Virus record (IMG/VR): IMGVR_UViG_2850808358_000013
Location: 1 to 7,858 of that record
Origin: a virus
Taxonomy: Duplodnaviria > Heunggongvirae > Uroviricota > Caudoviricetes
Reading direction: 5' to 3' (one strand)
DNA length: 7,858 nt
Shown: piece after piece, positions 1-7,858 of the stretch
How the letters are laid out: every line of letters begins with the position of its first letter
How positions within the stretch are numbered: position 1 is the stretch's first letter
Notes under the pieces: generated by a model
What the model was told of the DNA's origin: nothing
The model's database searches: none
The model's input: the letters and a program-made list of their open reading frames with translations, nothing else
Program-made: the position numbers and the translations under genes

Positions 1-939
1 TTATTTGATTTCAATTTTGTCCCACTCCCTGCCTCTGTCATCACGATACTGTGATGCCATGGTGTCCGACTTGTGCCCGAGAAGATGTTGAGCAAACTTA
101 TCGCTTATCTGCTTCTCATAGAGTCTTGCAGACAAACTGCGCAACTCGTGAAAGGTAGGTGGATCCCCTTCGAAGGAAAGACCTGATGCTTTTCGTGCGC
201 GCATAAAATACCTTGATACTGTGCCGGATGAAAGCGGTTCACGACGAGTAGATGCAATTATGGTTTCTCCGCCAAGAATCTCTTTGCATTTATCAAGTGT
301 TTCCTTCATTGATATCCCGAGAGCATCAACATGCAATGTTGTAGGGATGGCAATTTTTACGCCTGTTTTGCTTTGCTCGACATAAAGATATCCATCTACG
401 ATATCAGACCACTTCATTTCGCATAAATCACCAACTCGTTGCCCGGTAACAACAGCCAGTTCCATTGCAAGTCTGAGCCAACATGGTGATGATTCTGCTG
501 CTTGATAAATTTTCAGGTATTCGTCAGCCGTAAGTCTTGATCTCCTTACCTCTGATTTTGCTGCGCGAGTGGCAGCGACCGGGTTTGTTGTTATATGGCC
601 TTCAGCTATTGCCTCTCGGAATGCATCGCTCAGTGTTGATCTGATTAACTTGGCTGATGCCGCCTTGCCCTCGTCTATGTATCCATTGAGCATTGCCGCA
701 ATTTCTTTTGTGGTGATGTCTTCAAGTGGAGCATCAGGCAGCCCCCTCCTTATTGCTTTAATTTTGCTCATGTAATTTATGAGTGTCTTCTGCTTGATTC
801 CTCTGCTGGCGAGGATTTTTTCGTAGCGAGCAAGCCATGAATGTAACGTAACAGAATTATCACTGTTGATTCTCGCTGTCAGAGGCTTGTGTTTGTGTCC
901 TGAAAATAACTCAATGTTGGCCTGTATAGCTTCAGTGAT
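1..939 (-). pseudogene. int: Lambda-type tyrosine integrase (Int), 5'-truncated remnant; the longest ATG-initiated ORF is 1..771
   Basis: Minus-strand translation ends ...HLLGHKSDTMASQYRDDRGREWDKIEIK with the stop at 1-3, which I recognise as the C-terminus of phage lambda Int; the catalytic signatures HELR, LLGH and SQY are present. My manual translation upstream of the M at 771 continues in frame (..ITEAIQANIELFSGHKHKPLTARINSDNSVTLHSWLARYEKILASRGIKQKTLINYMSKI..) up to 939, where the frame enters the IS terminus and meets a stop (955-957). About 37 N-terminal codons and the start codon are missing. Confidence 0.9.
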
Positions 940-968
940 TGAGGTAGCCTGAGTTTAACGGACACTCC
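940..968 (+). repeat. Left terminal inverted repeat of the IS600-like element
   Basis: tgaggtagcctgagtttaacggacactcc; pairs with the reverse complement of the right end (tgaggtgtactggcaatagcggacactacc), about 20 of 29 positions identical. Confidence 0.6.
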
Positions 969-1003
969 TTCCTGAAATAGAATGGCATCAGAAGGAGCTA
1001 ATA

Positions 1004-1306
1004 ATGAGCAGAAAAACCCAACGTTACTCTAAAGAGTTCAAAGCTGAAGCTGTCAGAACGGTTCTTGAAAATCAACTTTCGATCAGTGAAGGCGCTTCCC
1101 GATTATCCCTTCCTGAAGGCACTTTAGGACAATGGGTTACCGCCGCCAGAAAAGGGCTCGGTACTCCTGGTTCCCGCACGGTGGCTGAACTGGAATCTGA
1201 AATTCTGCAACTGCGTAAGGCGTTAAATGAAGCTCGCCTTGAGCGAGATATATTAAAAAAAGCAACAGCGTATTTTGCACAGGAGTCGCTGAAAAATACG
1301 CGTTAA
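1004..1306 (+). CDS. IS3-family transposase OrfA (helix-turn-helix plus leucine-zipper-like C-terminus)
   Basis: 100-aa ORF with AGGAG 6 nt upstream of the ATG; the product ends ..ERDILKKATAYFAQESLK, typical of IS3-family OrfA; the slippery run lies near its 3' end. Confidence 0.9.
   Translation: MSRKTQRYSKEFKAEAVRTVLENQLSISEGASRLSLPEGTLGQWVTAARKGLGTPGSRTVAELESEILQLRKALNEARLERDILKKATAYFAQESLKNTR
1255..1261 (+). other. Programmed -1 ribosomal frameshift site (A AAA AAA followed by G) generating the OrfAB fusion transposase
   Basis: The heptamer aaaaaaa + g at 1255-1262 sits in the orfA frame as tta-aaa-aaa-gca; the orfB frame (the frame of the ATG at 1342) is exactly -1 relative to orfA. This is the known IS3-family mechanism (established for IS911 and IS3). 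Confidence 0.6.
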
Positions 1307-1341
1307 TCGAACAATGGCGACAACAATTTCCCATTGAAGCG

Positions 1342-2160
1342 ATGTGTCAGGTATTTGGTGTATCCAGGAGCGGTTATTACAACTGGGTACAGCATGAACC
1401 CTCAGACAGAAAACAAAGTGATGAGCGGCTAAAACTGGAGATTAAGGTGGCACATATCCGCACTCGCGAAACATATGGAACCCGGCGGCTCCAGACGGAG
1501 CTGGCAGAGAATGGCATCATCGTTGGTCGTGACCGACTGGCACGTCTTCGTAAGGAGCTAAGGCTACGCTGTAAGCAGAAACGCAAGTTCAGAGCGACTA
1601 CGAACCCGAACCACAATCTGCCAGTTGCGCCAAATCTGCTGAACCAGACGTTCGCTCCTACAGCACCAAATCAGGTCTGGGTGGCGGACCTGACGTATGT
1701 TGCCACACAGGAGGGATGGTTGTACCTCGCTGGCATCAAAGATGTTTATACGTGCGAAATTGTCGGCTACGCCATGGGAGAGCGCATGACAAAAGAGCTG
1801 ACAGGTAAAGCCCTGTTTATGGCGCTCAGGAGCCAGCGCCCACCTGCCGGGCTAATCCACCACTCTGATCGAGGTTCACAGTACTGCGCATACGATTACC
1901 GGGTCATACAGGAGCAGTTTGGTCTGAAAACATCAATGTCGCGTAAAGGTAACTGTTACGACAACGCTCCGATGGAAAGCTTCTGGGGAACGCTGAAAAA
2001 TGAGAGCCTGAGCCACTATCGTTTTAATAACCGGGATGAAGCCATCTCAGTAATACGGGAATACATTGAGATTTTCTACAATCGTCAGCGTCGTCACTCT
2101 CGTCTGGGGAATATCTCCCCGGCAGCCTTCAGGGAAAAATATCATCAGATGGCTGCTTAA
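1342..2160 (+). CDS. IS3-family transposase OrfB (DDE / retroviral-integrase-like catalytic core)
   Basis: 272-aa ORF containing DDE motif elements (..VWVADLTYV.., ..HHSDRGSQY.., ..NAPMESFWGTLKNE..); it lies in the -1 frame relative to orfA. Confidence 0.9.
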   Translation: MCQVFGVSRSGYYNWVQHEPSDRKQSDERLKLEIKVAHIRTRETYGTRRLQTELAENGIIVGRDRLARLRKELRLRCKQKRKFRATTNPNHNLPVAPNLLNQTFAPTAPNQVWVADLTYVATQEGWLYLAGIKDVYTCEIVGYAMGERMTKELTGKALFMALRSQRPPAGLIHHSDRGSQYCAYDYRVIQEQFGLKTSMSRKGNCYDNAPMESFWGTLKNESLSHYRFNNRDEAISVIREYIEIFYNRQRRHSRLGNISPAAFREKYHQMAA

Positions 2161-2174
2161 AAAAAGAACAAATG

Positions 2175-2203
2175 GTAGTGTCCGCTATTGCCAGTACACC
2201 TCA
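2175..2203 (+). repeat. Right terminal inverted repeat of the IS600-like element
   Basis: ggtagtgtccgctattgccagtacacctca ends in CA-3'; its reverse complement matches the left repeat. Confidence 0.6.
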
Positions 2204-2283
2204 TTCAGTTAATGCCTCGCAGAAAAAGCGCTCCTGCTGCTTAACAAATTCAACGATATCGAACATTTTTTTGGTCCTGAAAA

Positions 2284-2565
2284 TCAGAAAGGACAGGGGG
2301 AGAATTTTCTCTCCCATTCTTCTTCCGCCCGAGCATAGGCGATCGCTGAGATATAATCGTTGTACGCCTCTTCAGCTTTTTCGCCAGTGAGTGCCAGTTG
2401 GGCTTCTTTGGGTAAAAAAAGGCTGCTCATAAGCAATGGTTTATCGGGGAACATGCTGATAAGCTCCTGCGCCCGATCATCAATCCATTTATCCTTTTCA
2501 TCCTGAATATGCTGATTAACCCAGCGACGCTCCTCTATGCGGTCGCAGGTGAGGTATGCGTTCAT
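2284..2565 (-). CDS. Hypothetical small acidic protein (93 aa), last gene of the Rha operon
   Basis: ORF with AGGAG 9 nt upstream of the ATG (reverse complement of 2566-2580); its start is 20 nt after the stop of the upstream ORF. By my count 19 D/E versus 12 K/R. No family recognised. Confidence 0.55.
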   Translation of the reverse strand: MNAYLTCDRIEERRWVNQHIQDEKDKWIDDRAQELISMFPDKPLLMSSLFLPKEAQLALTGEKAEEAYNDYISAIAYARAEEEWERKFSPCPF

Positions 2566-2585
2566 GGCGGAACTCCTGATTCCGG

Positions 2586-2867
2586 TTAATGCATTAAATT
2601 AATTTGTCGGGAAAGCTGACAGACAGGGCAGTTACATTCTTCCTCCTGCTCTTTAGCGAAGAAATATGCAGCGGCCTGTAATGCGATGTCTTCTGGATGT
2701 TCCGCGATAAACATAACATTGCCTTCCGTATCAATAACAGAAATAGCCTCATCAGGCAGGACGACAAAATAGGCGATGATTTTATCATCCATAAAAACTT
2801 CTCCCATTATCGTTTCTGCTGGCGTTATGACGTTTTTTACATTGATATTAATTTTTTGATTGAGCAT
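2586..2867 (-). CDS. Hypothetical small, strongly acidic protein (93 aa) with a C-terminal C-x-C-x-x-C motif
   Basis: ORF with AAGGA about 7 nt upstream of the ATG; its start is 11 nt after the stop of the upstream ORF. About 15 D/E versus 5 K/R; ends ..EECNCPVCQLSRQINLMH. No family recognised. Confidence 0.55.
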   Translation of the reverse strand: MLNQKININVKNVITPAETIMGEVFMDDKIIAYFVVLPDEAISVIDTEGNVMFIAEHPEDIALQAAAYFFAKEQEEECNCPVCQLSRQINLMH

Positions 2868-2878
2868 GATATTTCCTT

Positions 2879-3091
2879 TCAGGCTGGTGAGATTAACGGT
2901 TGGCCTTTATGGTTCAGGTAAACTTCGATTGCATCTGAAATAATGCGGATTTTTTCAATCAGTGAATGTGCGTAAAGTGCATTATTAACGTTAGCTGACG
3001 CCATGTAATAACGCCCGTTGTAAAGAATTGCTGTACCGGGTTTAACGTCCTCGCGAGAAACTAATGCGGTTCCGTAGTGAGGTTTGAGCAT
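2879..3091 (-). CDS. Hypothetical small protein (70 aa)
   Basis: ORF with a strong GGAGG 7 nt upstream of the ATG (reverse complement of 3092-3110: ccGGAGGatttgtcATG). Same strand and tight spacing with the neighbouring genes. Confidence 0.55.
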   Translation of the reverse strand: MLKPHYGTALVSREDVKPGTAILYNGRYYMASANVNNALYAHSLIEKIRIISDAIEVYLNHKGQPLISPA

Positions 3092-3130
3092 GACAAATCC
3101 TCCGGTTAATTAATCCAGATATTTAATTTA

Positions 3131-3153
3131 ATCCCCGATATGTGATCGGGGAT
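3131..3153 (-). other. Perfect 9-bp inverted repeat (hairpin) between the Rha gene and the 70-aa ORF
   Basis: atccccgat-atgtg-atcggggat; on the minus-strand mRNA it is followed by an A/U-rich stretch (UAAAUUAAAUAU) rather than a clean U-tract. Confidence 0.4.
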
Positions 3154-3161
3154 GGGGTTAA

Positions 3162-3800
3162 TTAAAGATTAACGTTGAAACCAAAGCGGGAAGACTTTTC
3201 CGATGTGCGGGAAATATCCAGCAATTTACGGCGCATTTCTTCCGTCAGATGCTTGAAGGCGTTAAATTCGGCGACAGCCGCATCGACGTTATAGCCGTTA
3301 CGACGTAATTCATTAAATATGCGCATTGCAGGGCTTGGCATGTCGAATAAGACGGAGGTATCAAGCTGCAATGTATTTCTATCAACATAGTTCATCGTGG
3401 CATAGGGGTGATGCTCTGAAAACCACGATAAAGGGAAATTGATATTCATCGCAGGAGAAGACAGGGCCAGTTGTTTCTGTTCCCATAGTTGTTTTTCCAT
3501 GCGATCGAATTCAGCAATGTAGGCTTCCTTGAATGCAGCTGCTTTTTTGCCGGTGAAGCCCATCACCAGAAAAACGAAGCCGTTTTTGGTGATTTGGTAG
3601 GCGTTATAGGTATTGCCTCGGTGTTCGAATTTAACCCGCGAAAAGTTGCGGGTTAAGAATTGCTCAGAGCATTCGAGGGATTCTATTTTCTGAACAACAT
3701 GGTGATGCTGCTTGCCAAAAAACTCAGCAATCGAAATAGAAGTAGTGACGGCGCGACCATTTTCGATGGTTACGTCAGGGTGAGAAAGGGTAGTAGCCAT
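3162..3800 (-). CDS. rha: Rha-family phage regulatory protein (pRha domain; antirepressor-like)
   Basis: N-terminus MATTLSHPDVTIENGRAVTTSISIAEFFGKQHHHVVQKIESL...YQITKNGFVFLVMGFTGKKAAAFKEAYIAEFDRME matches the pRha N-terminal domain as I remember it. Start chosen at ATG 3800 (GAGGA 7 nt upstream) rather than the track's 3959; the 53-codon in-frame extension is GC-rich and low-complexity. Confidence 0.8.
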   Translation of the reverse strand: MATTLSHPDVTIENGRAVTTSISIAEFFGKQHHHVVQKIESLECSEQFLTRNFSRVKFEHRGNTYNAYQITKNGFVFLVMGFTGKKAAAFKEAYIAEFDRMEKQLWEQKQLALSSPAMNINFPLSWFSEHHPYATMNYVDRNTLQLDTSVLFDMPSPAMRIFNELRRNGYNVDAAVAEFNAFKHLTEEMRRKLLDISRTSEKSSRFGFNVNL

Positions 3801-3830
3801 AATGACATCCTCAAGTGATAAGTTAATTAA

Positions 3831-3937
3831 CTCACCACCAGAGGTGCTAATCTCATGGGTGGTGAGACGCACAGGGTTAGCACTACCGGTCACTCGAGAA
3901 CCCGGCCAGCCTTGCGGCTGCCCCGCACGCCTCACCA
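3831..3937 (-). promoter_or_regulatory. Structured 5' leader of rha with three copies of a complementary motif allowing alternative hairpins
   Basis: Plus-strand ctcaccacc (3831-3839) and ggtggtgag (3858-3866) form a perfect 9-bp stem; a third copy ctcacca (3931-3937) can alternatively pair with the middle element. cagcc-ttgc-ggctg (3907-3920) is a GCAA (GNRA) tetraloop hairpin on the minus-strand RNA. Confidence 0.4.
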
Positions 3938-3961
3938 TAATTTGAATGTGGCTGTGCATTA

Positions 3962-4043
3962 CGCATAAAAAAACCGCTTCAGCGCGGTTATGCGCTCGAG
4001 TAACTTTCGGGGTGCTAATCCCGGCACCCGTTTTATGAGGTGT
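3962..4043 (-). ncRNA. Putative small RNA (about 80 nt) between a promoter-like motif and an intrinsic terminator; hypothetical
   Basis: Minus-strand -35 TTGACT (4078-4073), 17-nt spacer, -10 TATATT (4055-4050). The predicted transcript 5'-ACACCUCAUAAAACGGGUGCCGGGAUUAGCACCCCGAAAGUUACUCGAGCGCAUAACCGCGCUGAAGCGGUUUUUUU contains a 6-bp GC hairpin (4010-4029) and the terminator hairpin; no plausible ORF. Confidence 0.25.
3967..3989 (-). terminator. Rho-independent terminator acting on minus-strand transcripts
   Basis: Minus-strand RNA AACCGC-GCUGAA-GCGGUU followed by a U-run (plus-strand A-run 3967-3973); the stem is short, so moderate strength; preceded by a second hairpin. Confidence 0.45.
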
Positions 4044-4049
4044 TCGCCA

Positions 4050-4078
4050 AATATAGCCCCGACATCACACGCAGTCAA
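4050..4078 (-). promoter_or_regulatory. Sigma70-like promoter candidate P2 (TTGACT-17-TATATT) on the minus strand
   Basis: Hexamers read directly from the reverse complement; shares the 11-mer TATTGACTGCG with P1. Confidence 0.3.
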
Positions 4079-4383
4079 TATCGTCCTTTCTCGGAAATGC
4101 TTTGGCGGTGCCGCCTGCACCCAAAACATTCCCTGTATTGGTCAGCGCCAACTTCCTGCCAGTGTTGCCCGTTCTCACGCCGTTCTCGCTCTCGCGCGGG
4201 GATACTCTCTCATCGACCGGATCGCACCCGATGATACAGCACGTTTACGTGTAGGGGTCTAAACAGGTCATTGACGCTGTAAAGCTCCAGATTGTTAAAG
4301 AGCATTTTGCGGCGGGTTAAGTCGCGCCGTACGACTGATTTATGTAGCCCTGTGTCAGGGCGCGATGTTTCTGGCTTGGGTAA

Positions 4384-4413
4384 AATATAATAAGTGCAAC
4401 TGATCGCAGTCAA
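4384..4413 (-). promoter_or_regulatory. Sigma70-like promoter candidate P1 (TTGACT-18-TATATT) on the minus strand
   Basis: Reverse complement of agtcaa (4408-4413) and aatata (4384-4389); sits in an AT-rich block; the same TATTGACTGCG 11-mer as P2, about 335 bp upstream of it. Confidence 0.25.
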
Positions 4414-4641
4414 TAGCAAGACTAATAATTTAATTTTAATCTATGTGATTGATTTTTAGATTAATTTATTTATGTAAAAAATATAAGCGAGGATAATGCA
4501 GGTGGTGAGTTATGGAGGATGCGCAAAGAAAAAACGGCGCTGAGGCCGGTTACTCTGTGTTAGATTTGGTGTGAGGGAACCCCTGATAACACTAAGAAAA
4601 GCAGTGAACAGTCAAAGAGAACCCAGCGGGCTTGGTGGCTT

Positions 4642-4670
4642 TTGACAAAAACATCGCCTGTAACTATAAT
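4642..4670 (+). promoter_or_regulatory. Consensus sigma70 promoter for the hicAB-like operon (TTGACA-17-TATAAT)
   Basis: ttgaca at 4642-4647, 17-nt spacer, tataat at 4665-4670. The palindrome aacta-taat-tagtt overlaps the -10 and is a candidate autoregulatory operator. Confidence 0.6.
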
Positions 4671-4699
4671 TAGTTGCAATGTAGCGAAGATGAGATTAT

Positions 4700-4954
4700 G
4701 TGGGTATGGGGAAAGCAGATAAGCTACTGGAAAAGTTTTTAAACAGTAAAAAAACGTTTGAATGGGATGAGTTGGTCGTTTTGTTTTCCTCTCTGGGATA
4801 TGTCAAAAAGGAAATGCAGGGCTCAAGAGTGCGGTTTTTCAATGCTGAAATCAACCACACCATATTAATGCATCGCCCACATCCAGAAAGTTATATTAAA
4901 GGTGGAACGCTGAAAGCGATTAAACAGAATCTGAAAGAGGCTGGGGTATTATGA
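4700..4954 (+). CDS. hicA: HicA-family toxin-like protein (YcfA/HicA fold, putative mRNA interferase); initiation may be at ATG 4706
   Basis: ..KADKLLEKFLNSKKTFEWDELVVLFSSLGY..QGSRVRFFNAEINHTILMHRPHPESYIKGGTLKAIKQNLKEAGVL fits the HicA pattern as I remember it; the stop overlaps the next start (ATGA at 4951-4954). The track start is GTG 4700. Confidence 0.7.
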   Translation: MGMGKADKLLEKFLNSKKTFEWDELVVLFSSLGYVKKEMQGSRVRFFNAEINHTILMHRPHPESYIKGGTLKAIKQNLKEAGVL

Positions 4955-5295
4955 ATCATCTAAAATATAAAGGATATTTAGGTACAGTAGAACCAGATTT
5001 TGAAAATAATATCCTGTACGGAAAACTGGCGTTTATTCGAGACCTGGTAACTTATGAGGCTTCTACATTAGCTGAACTGGAACAGGAGTTTAAGACATCG
5101 GTTGAGCTGTATTTACAGTCTTGTGTGGAGGATGGAAAGGAGCCTGATACCCCGTTTAAAGGTGTGTTTAACGTCAGACTTGATCCAGAACTGCATCGTC
5201 GGGTCGCTGAAATGGCGATGGAAGAAGATTTATCACTGAACGCCTTTGTTAATAAGGCGCTGGAAAAAGAAGTCAACCATCACACAGGGGCTTAA
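4951..5295 (+). CDS. hicB: HicB-family antitoxin-like protein with a C-terminal ribbon-helix-helix DNA-binding domain
   Basis: N-terminal YKGYLGTVEPDFENNILYGKLAFIRDL..EEPDTPF resembles HicB N-domains; C-terminal KGVFNVRLDPELHRRVAEMAMEEDLSLNAFVNKALEKEV is RHH-like; 4-bp overlap with hicA. Confidence 0.7.
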   Translation: MNHLKYKGYLGTVEPDFENNILYGKLAFIRDLVTYEASTLAELEQEFKTSVELYLQSCVEDGKEPDTPFKGVFNVRLDPELHRRVAEMAMEEDLSLNAFVNKALEKEVNHHTGA

Positions 5296-5382
5296 TGTTC
5301 CCTTCGTCTTTGACATCCTCACCGCCGAAGAATGGGGAATTTACGGCGCACTGGTAAATGGTGGGGCGAGCAGGAGGCAAAC

Positions 5383-5408
5383 AAAACCCGGCACCAAGGC
5401 CGGGTTTT
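5383..5408. terminator. Bidirectional Rho-independent terminator between the convergent hicAB-like operon and the repressor operon
   Basis: aaaacccggc-accaag-gccgggtttt: a perfect 10-bp stem with a 6-bp GC core and a 6-nt loop, with an A-run upstream and TTTTGTT downstream, so a U-tract follows on both strands. Confidence 0.6.
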
Positions 5409-5409
5409 G

Positions 5410-5580
5410 TTATTGGTGCATTTGGCAGGTTGTAATATCTGGTCCATAAGCCAAAGTAAAAACAGGCTTGTTGATCAAGCCCATGTTCTTTAATGATTGA
5501 ATCATTTTTCCTTGCTCGCTAACTTTTTGCTTGCTAAGTATTTCTTCCACTTGTTGTGTCAAGGATTTGTCTTTGTTCAT
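5410..5580 (-). CDS. Unlisted 56-codon ORF between the repressor gene and the terminator; hypothetical
   Basis: Manual translation of the minus strand gives MNKDKSLTQQVEEILSKQKVSEQGKMIQSLKNMGLINKPVFTLAYGPDITTCQMHQ; the stop lies 2 nt from the terminator stem; only a weak GTGAG Shine-Dalgarno. Below the ORF-track length cutoff. Confidence 0.3.
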   Translation of the reverse strand: MNKDKSLTQQVEEILSKQKVSEQGKMIQSLKNMGLINKPVFTLAYGPDITTCQMHQ

Positions 5581-5701
5581 TTATGGCTCACTTGATTGCG
5601 ACTGCTCCCCGCCCGCATTGGGCGAGGGTTCTCGGAGATTTTTCGCTGAAAAAGGAAATAAAATAGCCTCCCTGCAAGGTTATTGATATCATCCTGTGAG
5701 T

Positions 5702-6421
5702 TCAATCAAAAGTCTCATCATTCCACTGCGACTTTATGACCTTTCCGACAAACGGGCAGTTTTCGTTACACTCAATCATGTCGAATCGTGGGTTGAGTGG
5801 CTCCAGGTACGCTTTACCGCTCTCACGAATGAATCGTTTGAAGGTGAATTCATCGCCATTCATTCGGGCCACGCAAAAATCGCCATCCTCAATCTCCCGC
5901 TCAGGGTCAACGAGTATCAGCATCCCTTCGGGGAAACTGGGTTTACCACCCTGCGGCGCGGTCATTGAATGCCCCTTGACCTCCAGCCAGAACGACCTGT
6001 CACTGGCTTTTGTGGTGGTGGAGATCCACTTAATCGCATCCTTTGCGGTGTACGAAAAATCATCCATTGAGAAAGCTCCAGCCTGTACGCAGGAGAGTAA
6101 CGGATATTCGTAATATTTCTCGAACAGGTTACGCCTGTTTCCCGGTGTGTGGGTACGAATACTGCGTAACAAATCACTCAGATCTGGATTAATTTCTTCC
6201 GCAGGAACCTGTAATAAAGCCGCAAACTTAAGGGTATTTTCAGTATTTAACGCAATTTTTGCGTTCAATAACTGACTAACAGCCCCCTGCGTTTTGAAGC
6301 CGAGGATATCTGCGGCTTTTTCCTGGCTTAGGGATAGCTGTTTCCGTTTTTCATCCCAGATTTTGCGCAGTCGTTCAGCGTTCTGGATGTCTTTGTCAGT
6401 AATTGTAATTTTCTTCGTCAT
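5702..6421 (-). CDS. cI: Lambda cI-like prophage repressor (N-terminal HTH, C-terminal LexA/S24 autopeptidase domain)
   Basis: The C-terminal half is nearly colinear with lambda cI as I recall it (..[16 protein letters not shown].., ..[30 protein letters not shown].., ..[13 protein letters not shown].., ..[14 protein letters not shown]); Ala-Gly cleavage site, Ser (GHSM) and Lys (FKRF) all present. Start set at ATG 6421 (GGAGG 4 nt upstream) rather than the track's 6460. Confidence 0.9.
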
Positions 6422-6472
6422 AGTGCCTCCAATTTTATTAGCAACACAAATATTTATCAAATAGCTGGCCTG

Positions 6473-6500
6473 TTGACATTTAAATCAGGTAAGCTAATAT
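6473..6500 (+). promoter_or_regulatory. pR-like sigma70 promoter for the cro-like gene (TTGACA-16-TAATAT) in the divergent repressor/cro intergenic region
   Basis: ttgaca at 6473-6478 and taatat at 6495-6500; GGGAGG 6 nt before the ATG at 6527; the palindrome atttaaat lies in the spacer. The leftward repressor promoter and the operators were not resolved. Confidence 0.5.
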
Positions 6501-6526
6501 CGGAAAATTGAAATGGGAGGATCTCT

Positions 6527-6766
6527 ATGACTCTTGACGAGTACTTGAGACAAAGCTCTATCAGACAAGCCGATTTTGCGGCGATTGTTGGAGTTTCTCA
6601 GGGATTTGTCAGTGGGGTTATTACAGGGAGATACATGCCTCAGGGGCGGAAAGCCATTGAATGGGCAAAAGCTACAGACTGGAATGTAACTCCCCATGAA
6701 CTAAACCCGCATGACTACCTAAACATGGAAGATGGTATTCCGCTTCATGTAAGGCAAACAGCCTGA
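6527..6766 (+). CDS. Cro / YdaS-like small HTH regulator (79 aa)
   Basis: Divergent from the repressor gene with a strong SD; ..IRQADFAAIVGVSQGFVSGVITGRYMPQGRKAIEWAKATDWNVTPHELNPHDY fits the Cro/YdaS-type HTH pattern as I remember it. Confidence 0.7.
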   Translation: MTLDEYLRQSSIRQADFAAIVGVSQGFVSGVITGRYMPQGRKAIEWAKATDWNVTPHELNPHDYLNMEDGIPLHVRQTA

Positions 6767-6770
6767 TAAC

Positions 6771-6783
6771 CCTCCATCGGAGG
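6771..6783 (+). promoter_or_regulatory. Hairpin that pairs the Shine-Dalgarno sequence of the downstream ORF with an anti-SD
   Basis: cctcc-atc-ggagg: a perfect 5-bp stem whose 3' arm GGAGG is the SD located 5 nt upstream of the GTG start at 6789; it begins 5 nt after the cro-like stop. Confidence 0.4.
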
Positions 6784-6788
6784 TGTGA

Positions 6789-7070
6789 GTGAACAGGCAA
6801 ATCAAAACGGTTATGCCCGATCAGTACTGTGATGCTGATCGGGACTGGATACAGGAGCAATTGTTACAGCTAGACCCGACCACCAGGGTAAAAATTGCAG
6901 CAGAGTACGCGAGAGTGTACCAGGAAGAGTGGGACAAGGAGCCTGTATCGTTCAGGAAGGGCAACAGGGCAAGACGGAGCGCCAACACCCGGTTACGGGT
7001 GTATGTCCAGAAGTACGCGAGAGCCAGCCGTGGCTGGATGTTTTCGCCAGTAGCGATACGGAAGGAATAG
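6789..7070 (+). CDS. Hypothetical protein (93 aa; GTG start) in the position of cII / early-right genes; basic C-terminal half
   Basis: ORF directly downstream of the cro-like gene with GGAGG at -5; product ..DRDWIQEQLLQLDPTTRVKIAAEYARVYQEEWDKEP..RKGNRARRSANTRLRVYVQKYARASRGW..; no family recognised. An alternative ATG lies at 6813. Confidence 0.5.
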   Translation: MNRQIKTVMPDQYCDADRDWIQEQLLQLDPTTRVKIAAEYARVYQEEWDKEPVSFRKGNRARRSANTRLRVYVQKYARASRGWMFSPVAIRKE

Positions 7071-7096
7071 ATCTCATCAAGGTTATTATTTTTTTG

Positions 7097-7141
7097 TGAA
7101 ATGATTTCGCATGAAATCATTGCGCTTGAAATTTTACTAAG
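7097..7141. repeat. Three TGAAAT motifs at exact 15-bp spacing, with an embedded 9-bp inverted repeat
   Basis: TGAAAT at 7097, 7112 and 7127; units 1 and 2 match at 12 of 15 positions; inverted repeat aatgatttc (7100-7108) / gaaatcatt (7113-7121) with a 4-nt spacer; preceded by a T7 run and followed by tandem AAGGGGGT / AAGGGGGC (7142-7157). Confidence 0.45.
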
Positions 7142-7307
7142 AAGGGGGTAAGGGGGCAGATCTGTAACATCCGTGCCTGTAAGGGCACTACCAGAGGAAG
7201 GCAGCTCCATAGGTTAGGTAGATCACTGTATAGGGTGAGATGGTTTCTGACGAAATTGTTATTATGCTAACCATTACGGTAGAAATAGTACCATACTCAT
7301 CAAACAT

Positions 7308-7483
7308 GTGGTTATCAGCCTGCTCGGAAACAAATTCTACACCGGAAAAGACAAGGTCACGTTTGATTATGTGCTGGCTGCCAAATTGCGTGATGCCGGA
7401 CTGGCGATCGAACGTAATTATCTGGTTGATATGGCAACGGTAAGCGCGGATTCGTCGATATCATGGTCGTTGCCCCATCTGGT
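7308..7483 (+). pseudogene. Fragment of an unidentified gene, 3'-truncated by the IS911 insertion
   Basis: Protein-like frame ..GNKFYTGKDKVTFDYVLAAKLRDAGLAIERNYLVDMATVSADSSISWSLPHL runs straight into the IS terminus at 7484; the final residues and stop of the track ORF are encoded by the IS end. No convincing start or RBS (GTG at 7308 only). Confidence 0.35.

Positions 7484-7858
<375 letters not shown>

Follow-up and report, generated by a model that had tools for sequence, protein, structure and literature searches.

Positions 3960 to 4080 of a lambdoid early region had been proposed, from the letters of the sequence alone, to encode a small minus-strand RNA bounded by a promoter-like motif and an intrinsic terminator. 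The question that this locus raises is whether such an RNA is real and, if so, what it does. We analysed the whole stretch of viral DNA around it, here called the window (7,858 nucleotides; positions 1 to 7,858 of IMG/VR virus record IMGVR_UViG_2850808358_000013). The interval very probably holds IsrK, an RNA of 77 nt encoded next to the promoter of a P1-type immI antisense module; the module ends in a Rha-family antirepressor gene. The features of the window are collected in Table 1; (-) and (+) mark the strand.

Identity and boundaries of the RNA

A covariance-model scan against Rfam, which the sequence-only reading had suggested as a check, returned only two matches above the gathering scores in the whole window: C4 (RF01695) at 78.6 bits and isrK (RF01394) at 61.6 bits. 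The isrK match, at 4043..3967 (-), exceeded the gathering score of 50 with an E value of 1.2e-11 and covered positions 1 to 77 of the 77 in the model, a full-length match that gives an RNA of 77 nt. Both predicted RNA ends were borne out, since the isrK model runs from 4043 to 3967, where the last U is the end of the RNA. What had been described as a compact noncoding RNA reaching from promoter to terminator in a lambdoid early region corresponds to a known small RNA family. By homology, then, the candidate appears to be a real small RNA that is already known, a copy of IsrK, which is a family curated by Rfam and studied experimentally.

The earlier statement that the interval contains no credible open reading frame (ORF) agrees with our searches. 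The overlapping ORFs at 3959..4129 (-), 3990..4262 (+) and 4040..4234 (+) had no Pfam match, and the two that were scanned against PHROG, 3959..4129 (-) and 3990..4262 (+), had no match there. Because of this lack of family matches, we rejected the ORFs over IsrK as coding sequences.

Table 1. Features of the window, in window positions
Feature	Position	Strand	Evidence or remark
Integrase fragment	1-771
IS3-family element	1004-2160
gam-like gene, kil-like gene, rha, then C4 and IsrK			Order in window
Rha-family antirepressor gene, 212 aa from ATG 3800	3162..3800	-	Pfam Phage_pRha, 92.7 bits
Box b2 (UCACUUGAGGA), includes Rha gene Shine-Dalgarno GAGGA 3812-3808	3808..3818	-	11 pairs with C4 b' loop
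Box a2 (UUAGCAC), antirepressor leader just after C4, identical to a1	3844..3850	-	Sequence, duplex energies
C4 antisense RNA (Rfam RF01695), IsrK partner	3855..3942	-	78.6 bits; gathering score 45
IsrK sRNA (77 nt), Rfam RF01394	3967..4043	-	Covariance model; homologues in 8/8 relatives and Gifsy-1
Intrinsic terminator/attenuator: stem 3989-3984 / 3977-3972, U7 3973-3967	3967..3989	-	Consensus scan; homologue hairpins
Box b1 (GUUACUCGAG), linker before terminator	3995..4004	-	Complement of C4 hairpin-2 loop b' (CUCGAGUGAC, 3898-3889)
IsrK stem-loop 2 (CGGG / CCCG), pairs 4023-4020/4011-4008, box a1 in loop	4008..4023	-	Rfam, fold
Box a1 (UUAGCAC), in IsrK hairpin 2 loop	4012..4018	-	Complement of C4 a' (GUGCUAA, 3883-3877), 7 bp
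IsrK stem-loop 1 (CACCU / GGGUG, A-rich loop), pairs 4042-4038/4029-4025	4025..4042	-	Rfam, fold, covariation
PisrK, predicted sigma-70 promoter: -35 TTGACT 4078-4073, 17-nt spacer, -10 TATATT 4055-4050	4050..4078	-	Consensus scan and conservation
hicAB	4700-5295
LexA-type cI (a cro-like gene follows)	5702-6460
Second IS	Starts 7520

Promoter and terminator

A consensus scan recovered both of the motifs on which the sequence-only reading had been built, TTGACT-17-TATATT at 4078..4050 (-), with 10/12 matches, and a hairpin with U-tract at 3989-3967 (-). At the sequence level, the predicted +1 is A4043, with 6 nt between the end of the -10 element and +1. The terminator-like site at 3989..3972 (-) reads AACCGCGCTGAAGCGGTT and is followed by a T-run, with U7 at 3973..3967. 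In the RNA, the 3' end is AACCGC-GCUGAA-GCGGUU plus the U run, a 6-bp GC-rich stem whose hairpin has an energy of -8.8 kcal/mol in the window.

The number of such sites was not above chance. Between 3000 and 5000 we counted 3 promoter-like sites (3.6 expected from shuffles) and 3 terminator-like sites (2.0 expected), and the fold of 82 nt had a z of -1.96. The motifs alone are unremarkable; homology and conservation carry the case.

We used an alignment, A1, of 104 distinct homologous modules. Upstream of +1, the columns T11, T12 and G13 (4078-4076, the TTG of the -35 element) and A35 and T39 (4054 and 4050, positions 2 and 6 of the -10 element) were invariant among the 104 homologues, and T34 and A37 (-10 positions 1 and 4) were nearly so, while the spacer varied. 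The hexamers otherwise diverge between lineages (TTGATT/TACACT, TTGCCA/TACATT, TTGAAA/TATAGT and TTGACA/GACACT). Invariant key bases, divergent hexamers and a free spacer are together the signature expected of a working sigma-70 promoter.

A hairpin with a mean energy of -8.4 kcal/mol, followed by at least 5 T, was present in 113 of 114 modules. In A1 the terminator helix was 69% paired, a value to be read with the two terminator types lying out of register in that alignment. The sequence-only reading had held that nothing downstream on this strand needs a terminator at this place unless a transcript ends here. This needs correcting: the C4 RNA and the Rha antirepressor gene follow on the same strand, which points, by analogy with Gifsy-1, to a leaky attenuator inside an operon.

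Fold of IsrK

The fold that we favor for IsrK consists of two short 5' hairpins and the terminator, giving a predicted three stem-loops. Helix 1 was 99.8% paired in A1, with double-sided changes at 5 of its 6 pairs, these being carried by few sequences; compensatory versions of stem 1 occur in the relatives L003 and L007 and in Gifsy-1. Helix 2 was 100% paired, with little variation.

The RNA had been described as a two-stem-loop molecule with a GC hairpin at 4029-4010 in its middle. A compact structured RNA is indeed present, but it has three stem-loops, and the proposed middle hairpin is not the conserved one. Although that hairpin can form in the window sequence, it was 84.6% paired among the homologues, compared with 84.8% in shuffles, and had no double-sided changes. 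We rejected it as the functional fold because it shows no covariation. Of the two stems expected to be conserved in homologues, the terminator was, but the 4029-4010 hairpin does not covary.

C4 and the pairing boxes

Absent from the earlier reading was the RNA that adjoins IsrK and is its pairing partner, C4, which starts 24 nt downstream on the same strand. In the minimum free energy (MFE) fold of C4, box b' lies in the loop of hairpin 2 and box a' is single-stranded. The C4 stems were 99.4 to 99.5% paired in A1, with abundant compensatory change.

The complementarity between the two RNAs covaries as well. The a1:a' helix was paired in 97.7% of cells, with double-sided changes at 6 of 7 pairs and up to 5 pair types per column. 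The b1:b' helix was 96.1% paired over 9 pairs (4003-3995 with C4), and 8 of the 9 had double-sided changes, so that 14 of the 16 pairs in the two helices had changed on both sides. A tenth b1:b' pair, G4004-C3889, exists in the window but lacks conservation (5/113). The whole proposed structure was 95.8% paired in A1, compared with 80.8% in shuffles (0 of 500 reached the observed value) and about 40% when the partners were slid.

The boxes of IsrK recur in the antirepressor leader as a2 and b2, and the GAGGA within b2 lies 7 nt upstream of ATG 3800. Alignment-free duplex energies from restricted RNAduplex runs showed that cognate duplexes were 5-8 kcal/mol stronger than noncognate ones for all four box pairs: -14.6 versus -8.6 kcal/mol for a1 with a', -13.3 versus -5.6 kcal/mol for b1 with b', -10.0 versus -5.2 kcal/mol for a2 with a', and -17.8 versus -10.9 kcal/mol for b2 with b'. 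The 114 modules carry 20 alleles of a' and 41 of b', in 56 combinations. These results show a three-way covariation, in which IsrK and the leader carry equal boxes and the cognate C4 exposes boxes complementary to both. RNAcofold of IsrK with C4 and of the leader with C4 gave gains of -1.9 and -0.7 kcal/mol, the same as for shuffles. We discarded it as a test because nested-only cofolding is blind to loop-loop contacts between folded RNAs.

The antirepressor gene and the frame through C4

The product of the Rha gene matched PHROG families 995, 1760 and 518 (transcriptional regulator or anti-repressor), and its counterparts in relatives are annotated as Rha or antirepressor. A frame that begins at ATG 3938 in the 5' arm of C4 continues in frame into rha; it is closed upstream of 3959 in the window, and the window has no separate icd-like ORF between C4 and the Rha gene. 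The frame could possibly yield a second, N-terminally extended isoform of the antirepressor. We also observed that the open frame through C4 is conserved and that database protein families seemingly include the translated C4 region.

For the window itself, the result is mainly an annotation matter. The segment 3855-4078 should be annotated as two regulatory RNAs that are already known, with ATG 3800 as the start of the Rha gene. At least one E. coli RefSeq genome instead has a pipeline coding sequence (CDS) across C4 and IsrK: the PGAP Rha CDS of E. coli 90-3040 extends over both. Some relatives have a long ORF over the whole module.

Context and distribution

Around the module, the window consists of lambdoid early-region DNA broken up by IS elements. 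Because these elements interrupt the prophage, the module may be silent or decoupled in it. A search for CI operator repeats common to the cI-cro intergenic region and the leftward promoter region gave nothing convincing. A possible PL promoter with a nut-like site lies upstream.

The stretch 3700-4400 was matched in 597 of 5,426 complete E. coli genomes and also in many Stx-converting phages. In Stx2 phage F004 (GenBank LC710661), an "isrK Hfq binding RNA" and a "C4 antisense RNA" are annotated at the homologous place. We compared eight relatives, namely, Stx1, Stx2 and Stx2c phages, YYZ-2008, a Peduoviridae phage, Salmonella ST64B, a Yersinia phage and an E. coli chromosome. Each of them has isrK (56.9-76.6 bits) at a distance of 24-35 nt upstream of C4 (75-83 bits), with an antirepressor-type gene after C4; the IsrK-C4 linkage was present in every locus examined, Gifsy-1 included. 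A pattern scan of IMG/VR gave 120 further loci. With a degenerate IsrK...C4 pattern, the subtype was found in Shigella flexneri, Salmonella enterica, E. coli, E. albertii, Escherichia sp. and Citrobacter braakii and in one Vagococcus contig, which may be contamination. An exact 43-mer of the window IsrK had no match in species-representative genomes. Some elements carry two or three tandem IsrK-C4 modules with different box codes.

Proposed mechanism and alternatives

IsrK of the Salmonella prophage Gifsy-1 is a stable RNA with its own promoter that acts in trans (Hershko-Shalev et al. 2016, PMC4825925). PisrK drives the short IsrK and a translationally silent read-through mRNA there, the read-through transcripts form the target mRNA, and a stable processed RNA, STnc1160, arises downstream of IsrK (PMC4825925). 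When IsrK is provided in trans, translation of anrP rises 139-fold, and this trans activity is lost in IsrK mutants (PMC4825925). Hfq binding and trans-activation of antirepressor translation are known from these Salmonella experiments alone (PMC4825925).

Most likely, IsrK in the window competes with the antirepressor leader for C4 and would thereby switch antirepressor translation on, as in Gifsy-1. The module would be read in the order PisrK, IsrK (with a1/b1 and a leaky terminator), C4 (b'/a'), leader (a2/b2) and the Rha-family gene. Transcription is predicted to start at A4043. By analogy with P1 and Gifsy-1, the terminator at 3989-3967 would end most transcripts and so release free 77-nt IsrK; were it leaky, as in Gifsy-1, some read-through would produce the C4 and rha mRNA. 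The exposed b' and a' boxes of C4 are complementary to b2, with its Shine-Dalgarno, and to a2, and pairing between them would, as in P1, block ribosome access to the antirepressor. Because IsrK carries the same boxes as the leader, it would pair with C4, in cis within the read-through RNA and in trans as the short RNA, and the antirepressor would then be translated, as in Gifsy-1. The antirepressor would in turn antagonize the prophage repressor and push the prophage towards induction.

Counting against this explanation, the published Gifsy-1 model is more complex than simple C4 titration. Coupling in Gifsy-1 needs translation of orf45, which starts inside C4, and the cis a1 mutation G28A raises basal translation (PMC4825925). 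The context also counts against it, as the module is located in a leftward early operon here and downstream of Q in Gifsy-1. So do the lack of a net heterodimer gain in RNAcofold, the low score of the window on the c4-a1b1 model (17.5 bits) and the IS elements within the prophage.

The main rival is a cis attenuator as in P4, with C4 pairing to the nascent a1/b1 and promoting termination, so that the 77-nt RNA is mainly a by-product. The architecture is that of P4 seqA-CI-seqC, and the Gifsy-1 authors raise the possibility themselves (PMC4825925). The window adds to this that b1 ends only 5 nt before the terminator stem, that a1/b1 are paired in cis with C4 in the MFE fold of the full-length RNA, and that a helix extended from the terminator flanks has modest covariation in an alignment-free check (the terminator types misalign in A1). 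We nevertheless consider attenuation somewhat unlikely to be the main role, given the trans-activation of anrP by short IsrK and its loss in mutants, and a co-expressed C4-containing fragment did not relieve IsrK toxicity in the Gifsy-1 study (PMC4825925). Attenuation of this kind and trans-activation are not mutually exclusive.

It is very unlikely that IsrK is instead an independent, Hfq-dependent trans-acting small RNA with mainly host core-genome mRNA targets, its linkage to C4 and the antirepressor being incidental. The RNA has a U7 tail and a single-stranded linker, which are typical of Hfq-dependent small RNAs, and the Rfam family bears the name "isrK Hfq binding RNA"; other prophage small RNAs regulate host genes (PMC12197685). 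However, the variable segments of IsrK change in step with the cognate C4 and leader and follow no fixed host sequence, the linkage to C4 occurs in every locus examined, and a conserved host target is improbable because there are 56 box-allele combinations. Chance resemblance to a promoter and a terminator, or membership of a protein-coding gene, is so improbable that it hardly enters the balance: the motif counts do equal the shuffle expectation, and a long ORF does span the module in some relatives, as does the PGAP CDS of E. coli 90-3040, but the covariance-model matches exceed their gathering scores, structure and boxes covary strongly, key promoter bases are invariant, and in the window the frame is closed upstream of 3959, with the ORFs over IsrK lacking family matches.

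If IsrK competes with the leader for C4, the IsrK-C4-antirepressor module would be a widespread switch of enterobacterial prophages, present in Shiga-toxin phages as well, that sets antirepressor output and hence prophage induction. A further idea, which we consider unlikely, is that the three sets of matching boxes make up a hypervariable and combinatorial "address code" and that free IsrK is a diffusible, allele-specific inducer signal. Were this true, one prophage releasing a burst of IsrK would lift the repression of the antirepressor in any co-resident prophage or satellite that shares its code, and cross-induction or exclusion between prophages would be wired by the IsrK box code.

Comparison with known systems

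The immI region of P1 and P7 is described in outline as an a1/b1 leader, the c4 RNA, a2/b2, icd and ant (Citron & Schuster 1990). In the P1 record, a1, b1, c4, a2, b2 (over the icd ribosome-binding site), icd and ant stand at matching distances from P51b. The spacing is common to P1 and the window: a1 lies at about +26 and b1 at about +40, c4 lies some 100 nt downstream with a2 directly behind it, and b2 covers a ribosome-binding site. In both, the a box has 7 nt and begins with UU. P1 also has, like the window, a hairpin between b1 and c4, in its case with AUUUUUG. The isrK model aligned to P1 4231-4312, starting 7 nt after the -10 element, at 35.1 bits (E = 7e-6), which is below threshold. 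The window, in turn, scored 17.5 bits on the Rfam family c4-a1b1 (RF03163; E = 0.13, 4056..4004), below the gathering score of 46.7, and because of this score we did not assign it to that family, although it probably functions as such. L003 (50.6), Gifsy-1 (48.1) and P1 (51.0) pass the RF03163 threshold, and the family overlaps isrK in Gifsy-1, YYZ-2008 and P1.

The arrangement that defines c4-a1b1, two boxes upstream of c4 that are complementary to a'/b' of the adjacent C4, is present in the window. So is that of a P1-type immI region, a C4 with exposed a'/b' and, downstream, a2/b2 with b2 over the ribosome-binding site. The covariation of its boxes with C4 and their recurrence in the antirepressor leader argue that IsrK is the a1/b1 partner of C4, the counterpart of seqA in P4. 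This covariation confirms, independently and by comparison, the a1:a' helix that was proven in Gifsy-1, and it ties IsrK explicitly to the concept of P1 a1/b1 and P4 seqA, a link that exists in Rfam and a few papers and is rarely stated in those papers on IsrK that we consulted. Unlike P1, the window lacks a separate icd gene, its output is a Rha-family protein (Phage_pRha) and not Ant1/Ant2, and it belongs to a lambdoid prophage with a CI/LexA-type repressor and not P1 C1.

In P4, as in the window, sequences complementary to a C4-family RNA lie both before and after it (seqA-CI-seqC; PMC10111431, PMC4825925), and relatives of P4 seqA and CI are reported to be detected by the isrK and C4 profiles (PMC10111431). 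CI of P4 works by ending transcription of the replication operon prematurely (PMC10111431, PMC4825925). The downstream box in the window instead covers the antirepressor Shine-Dalgarno, which would point to translational control, and the downstream genes are rha, kil and gam and not primase.

Gifsy-1 is the system in which IsrK has been likened to P4 seqA (PMC4825925). Its isrK scores 79.3 bits, against 61.6 for the window, and its C4 scores 69 bits; the gene order is isrK, C4, the antirepressor-like STM2616 and isrJ. The Gifsy-1 promoter, TTGACA-18-TATATT with 6 nt to a +1 A, has the geometry of the one in the window, and the two have in common GGGGCTATATT, 6 nt and then +1 A. They also have in common the three stem-loops with the terminator, a C4 (STnc1160) whose 5' arm contains an ATG, a following antirepressor gene and the a1:a' helix. 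The pairs G28:C162 and G31:C159, validated in Gifsy-1 by compensatory mutation (PMC4825925), map exactly onto a1:a', and the start of orf45, A107, is the ATG in the C4 5' arm.

The box alleles differ, being UUAGCAC / GUUACUCGAG in the window and UUGGCGU / UCACCG in Gifsy-1, and so does the sequence of stem 1. The ORF that starts in C4 is in frame with the Rha gene in the window, whereas in Gifsy-1 it is a separate ORF of 45 codons with an ATGA overlap. The module of the window sits in the leftward early region next to kil-gam and that of Gifsy-1 downstream of the Q-like antQ; we recognized no Q-type antiterminator gene among the ORFs of the window, and, unlike in Gifsy-1, no isrJ follows the module. 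Judged from these comparisons, the IsrK of the window probably differs from the characterized copy only in its box alleles and its genomic context.

Setting of the isrK module in the prophage

The prophage in the window is degraded and includes an integrase fragment and IS3-family sequences (see the table). The hicA/hicB toxin-antitoxin pair has cI on one side and the leftward promoter region on the other. Because relatives carry a restriction-modification system where the window has this pair, the site looks like a moron slot.

Coordinates of features in the window and in two homologous loci
Feature	Sequence	Position	Strand	Remarks
Integrase fragment	Window	1-771	-	Continues off the left end
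IS3-family element	Window	orfA 1004-1306; orfB 1342-2160		Occupies the expected exo/bet place
boxA-like sequence TGCTCTTTAACAA	Window	4304..4292	-	After the boxB-like hairpin
boxB-like hairpin GCCCTGACACAGGGC	Window	4361..4347	-	After the promoter-like site
Promoter-like site TTGACT-18-TATATT	Window	4413..4384	-	Consensus scan
Perfect sigma-70 consensus promoter TTGACA-17-TATAAT	Window	4642-4670	+	Ahead of hicA/hicB
hicA/hicB toxin-antitoxin pair	Window	4700-4954 and 4951-5295	+
Second IS3-family orfA	Window	7520-7858 (starts at 7520)		Beyond the cro/cII-like genes
CDS "Rha family phage regulatory protein," 298 aa	L002, E. coli 90-3040, NZ_CP027459	2963..3859		RefSeq
Tandem modules, three copies	L034, IMG/VR UViG_2671181028_000005	9698-11254

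Upstream of isrK, the minus strand at 4413..4292 holds a second promoter-like site followed by boxB-like and boxA-like elements. This site and PisrK, the isrK promoter, have the 11-mer TATTGACTGCG in common, and we take TGCTCTTTAACAA to be an exact rrn-type boxA. Among the window ORFs, there was no N-like ORF between the promoter-like site and isrK. Judged by these motifs, the region could be the leftward early promoter with a nut-like antitermination site that directs transcription into isrK.

The IsrK terminator has CGCAUAA ... UUAUGCG flanks (3994..3961 on the minus strand) that are able to lengthen its hairpin over the U-tract. From one terminator type to another, the two flanks show modest co-variation in their complementarity (-5.7 versus -3.8 kcal/mol), and the lengthened hairpin may bear on the processing or stability of read-through RNA.

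Tandem copies and an outlying match

The whole module is repeated in tandem, in two or three copies, in the homologous loci L034, L011, L023, L076, and L080. The period is 656 nt, and each unit consists of the promoter, IsrK, C4, and a short Rha-like ORF (~120 aa). Each unit is also spanned entirely by an ORF of 219 to 220 aa that begins at the stop of the preceding unit. In L034, the sole tandem locus that we inspected in detail, the a/b box alleles differ among all three copies.

One match to the IsrK...C4 pattern (L133) lies in contig NZ_JBQPOM010000071.1 of Vagococcus sp. WN89Y, labelled a Firmicute. Since the remaining matches are all from Enterobacteriaceae, this contig may be contaminated or mis-binned.

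Open reading frame through C4

The RefSeq Rha CDS of L002 reaches upstream over both C4 (3662-3749) and IsrK (3774-3850), and a conserved SD with a ATGGCTACT start lies ~86 codons inside it. The annotated N terminus is probably over-extended.

In 108 of 114 modules, a frame that begins at an ATG within the C4 5' arm stays free of stops as far as the antirepressor ATG (3938..3800 on the minus strand of the window); the other two frames across the same stretch are open in 36 and 17 modules. In 88 of the 114, the window among them, this frame also shares the register of the antirepressor start codon. The 46-aa product matches Pfam PF10554 (Phage_ASH; 45 bits), as well as PHROG 995 and 6928. Either translation passes through C4, resulting in coupling or in a longer isoform, or the matched protein families in part mirror a conserved RNA. 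The ATG in the C4 5' arm (3938 on the minus strand) is the counterpart of the start of "orf45" in the Salmonella prophage Gifsy-1.
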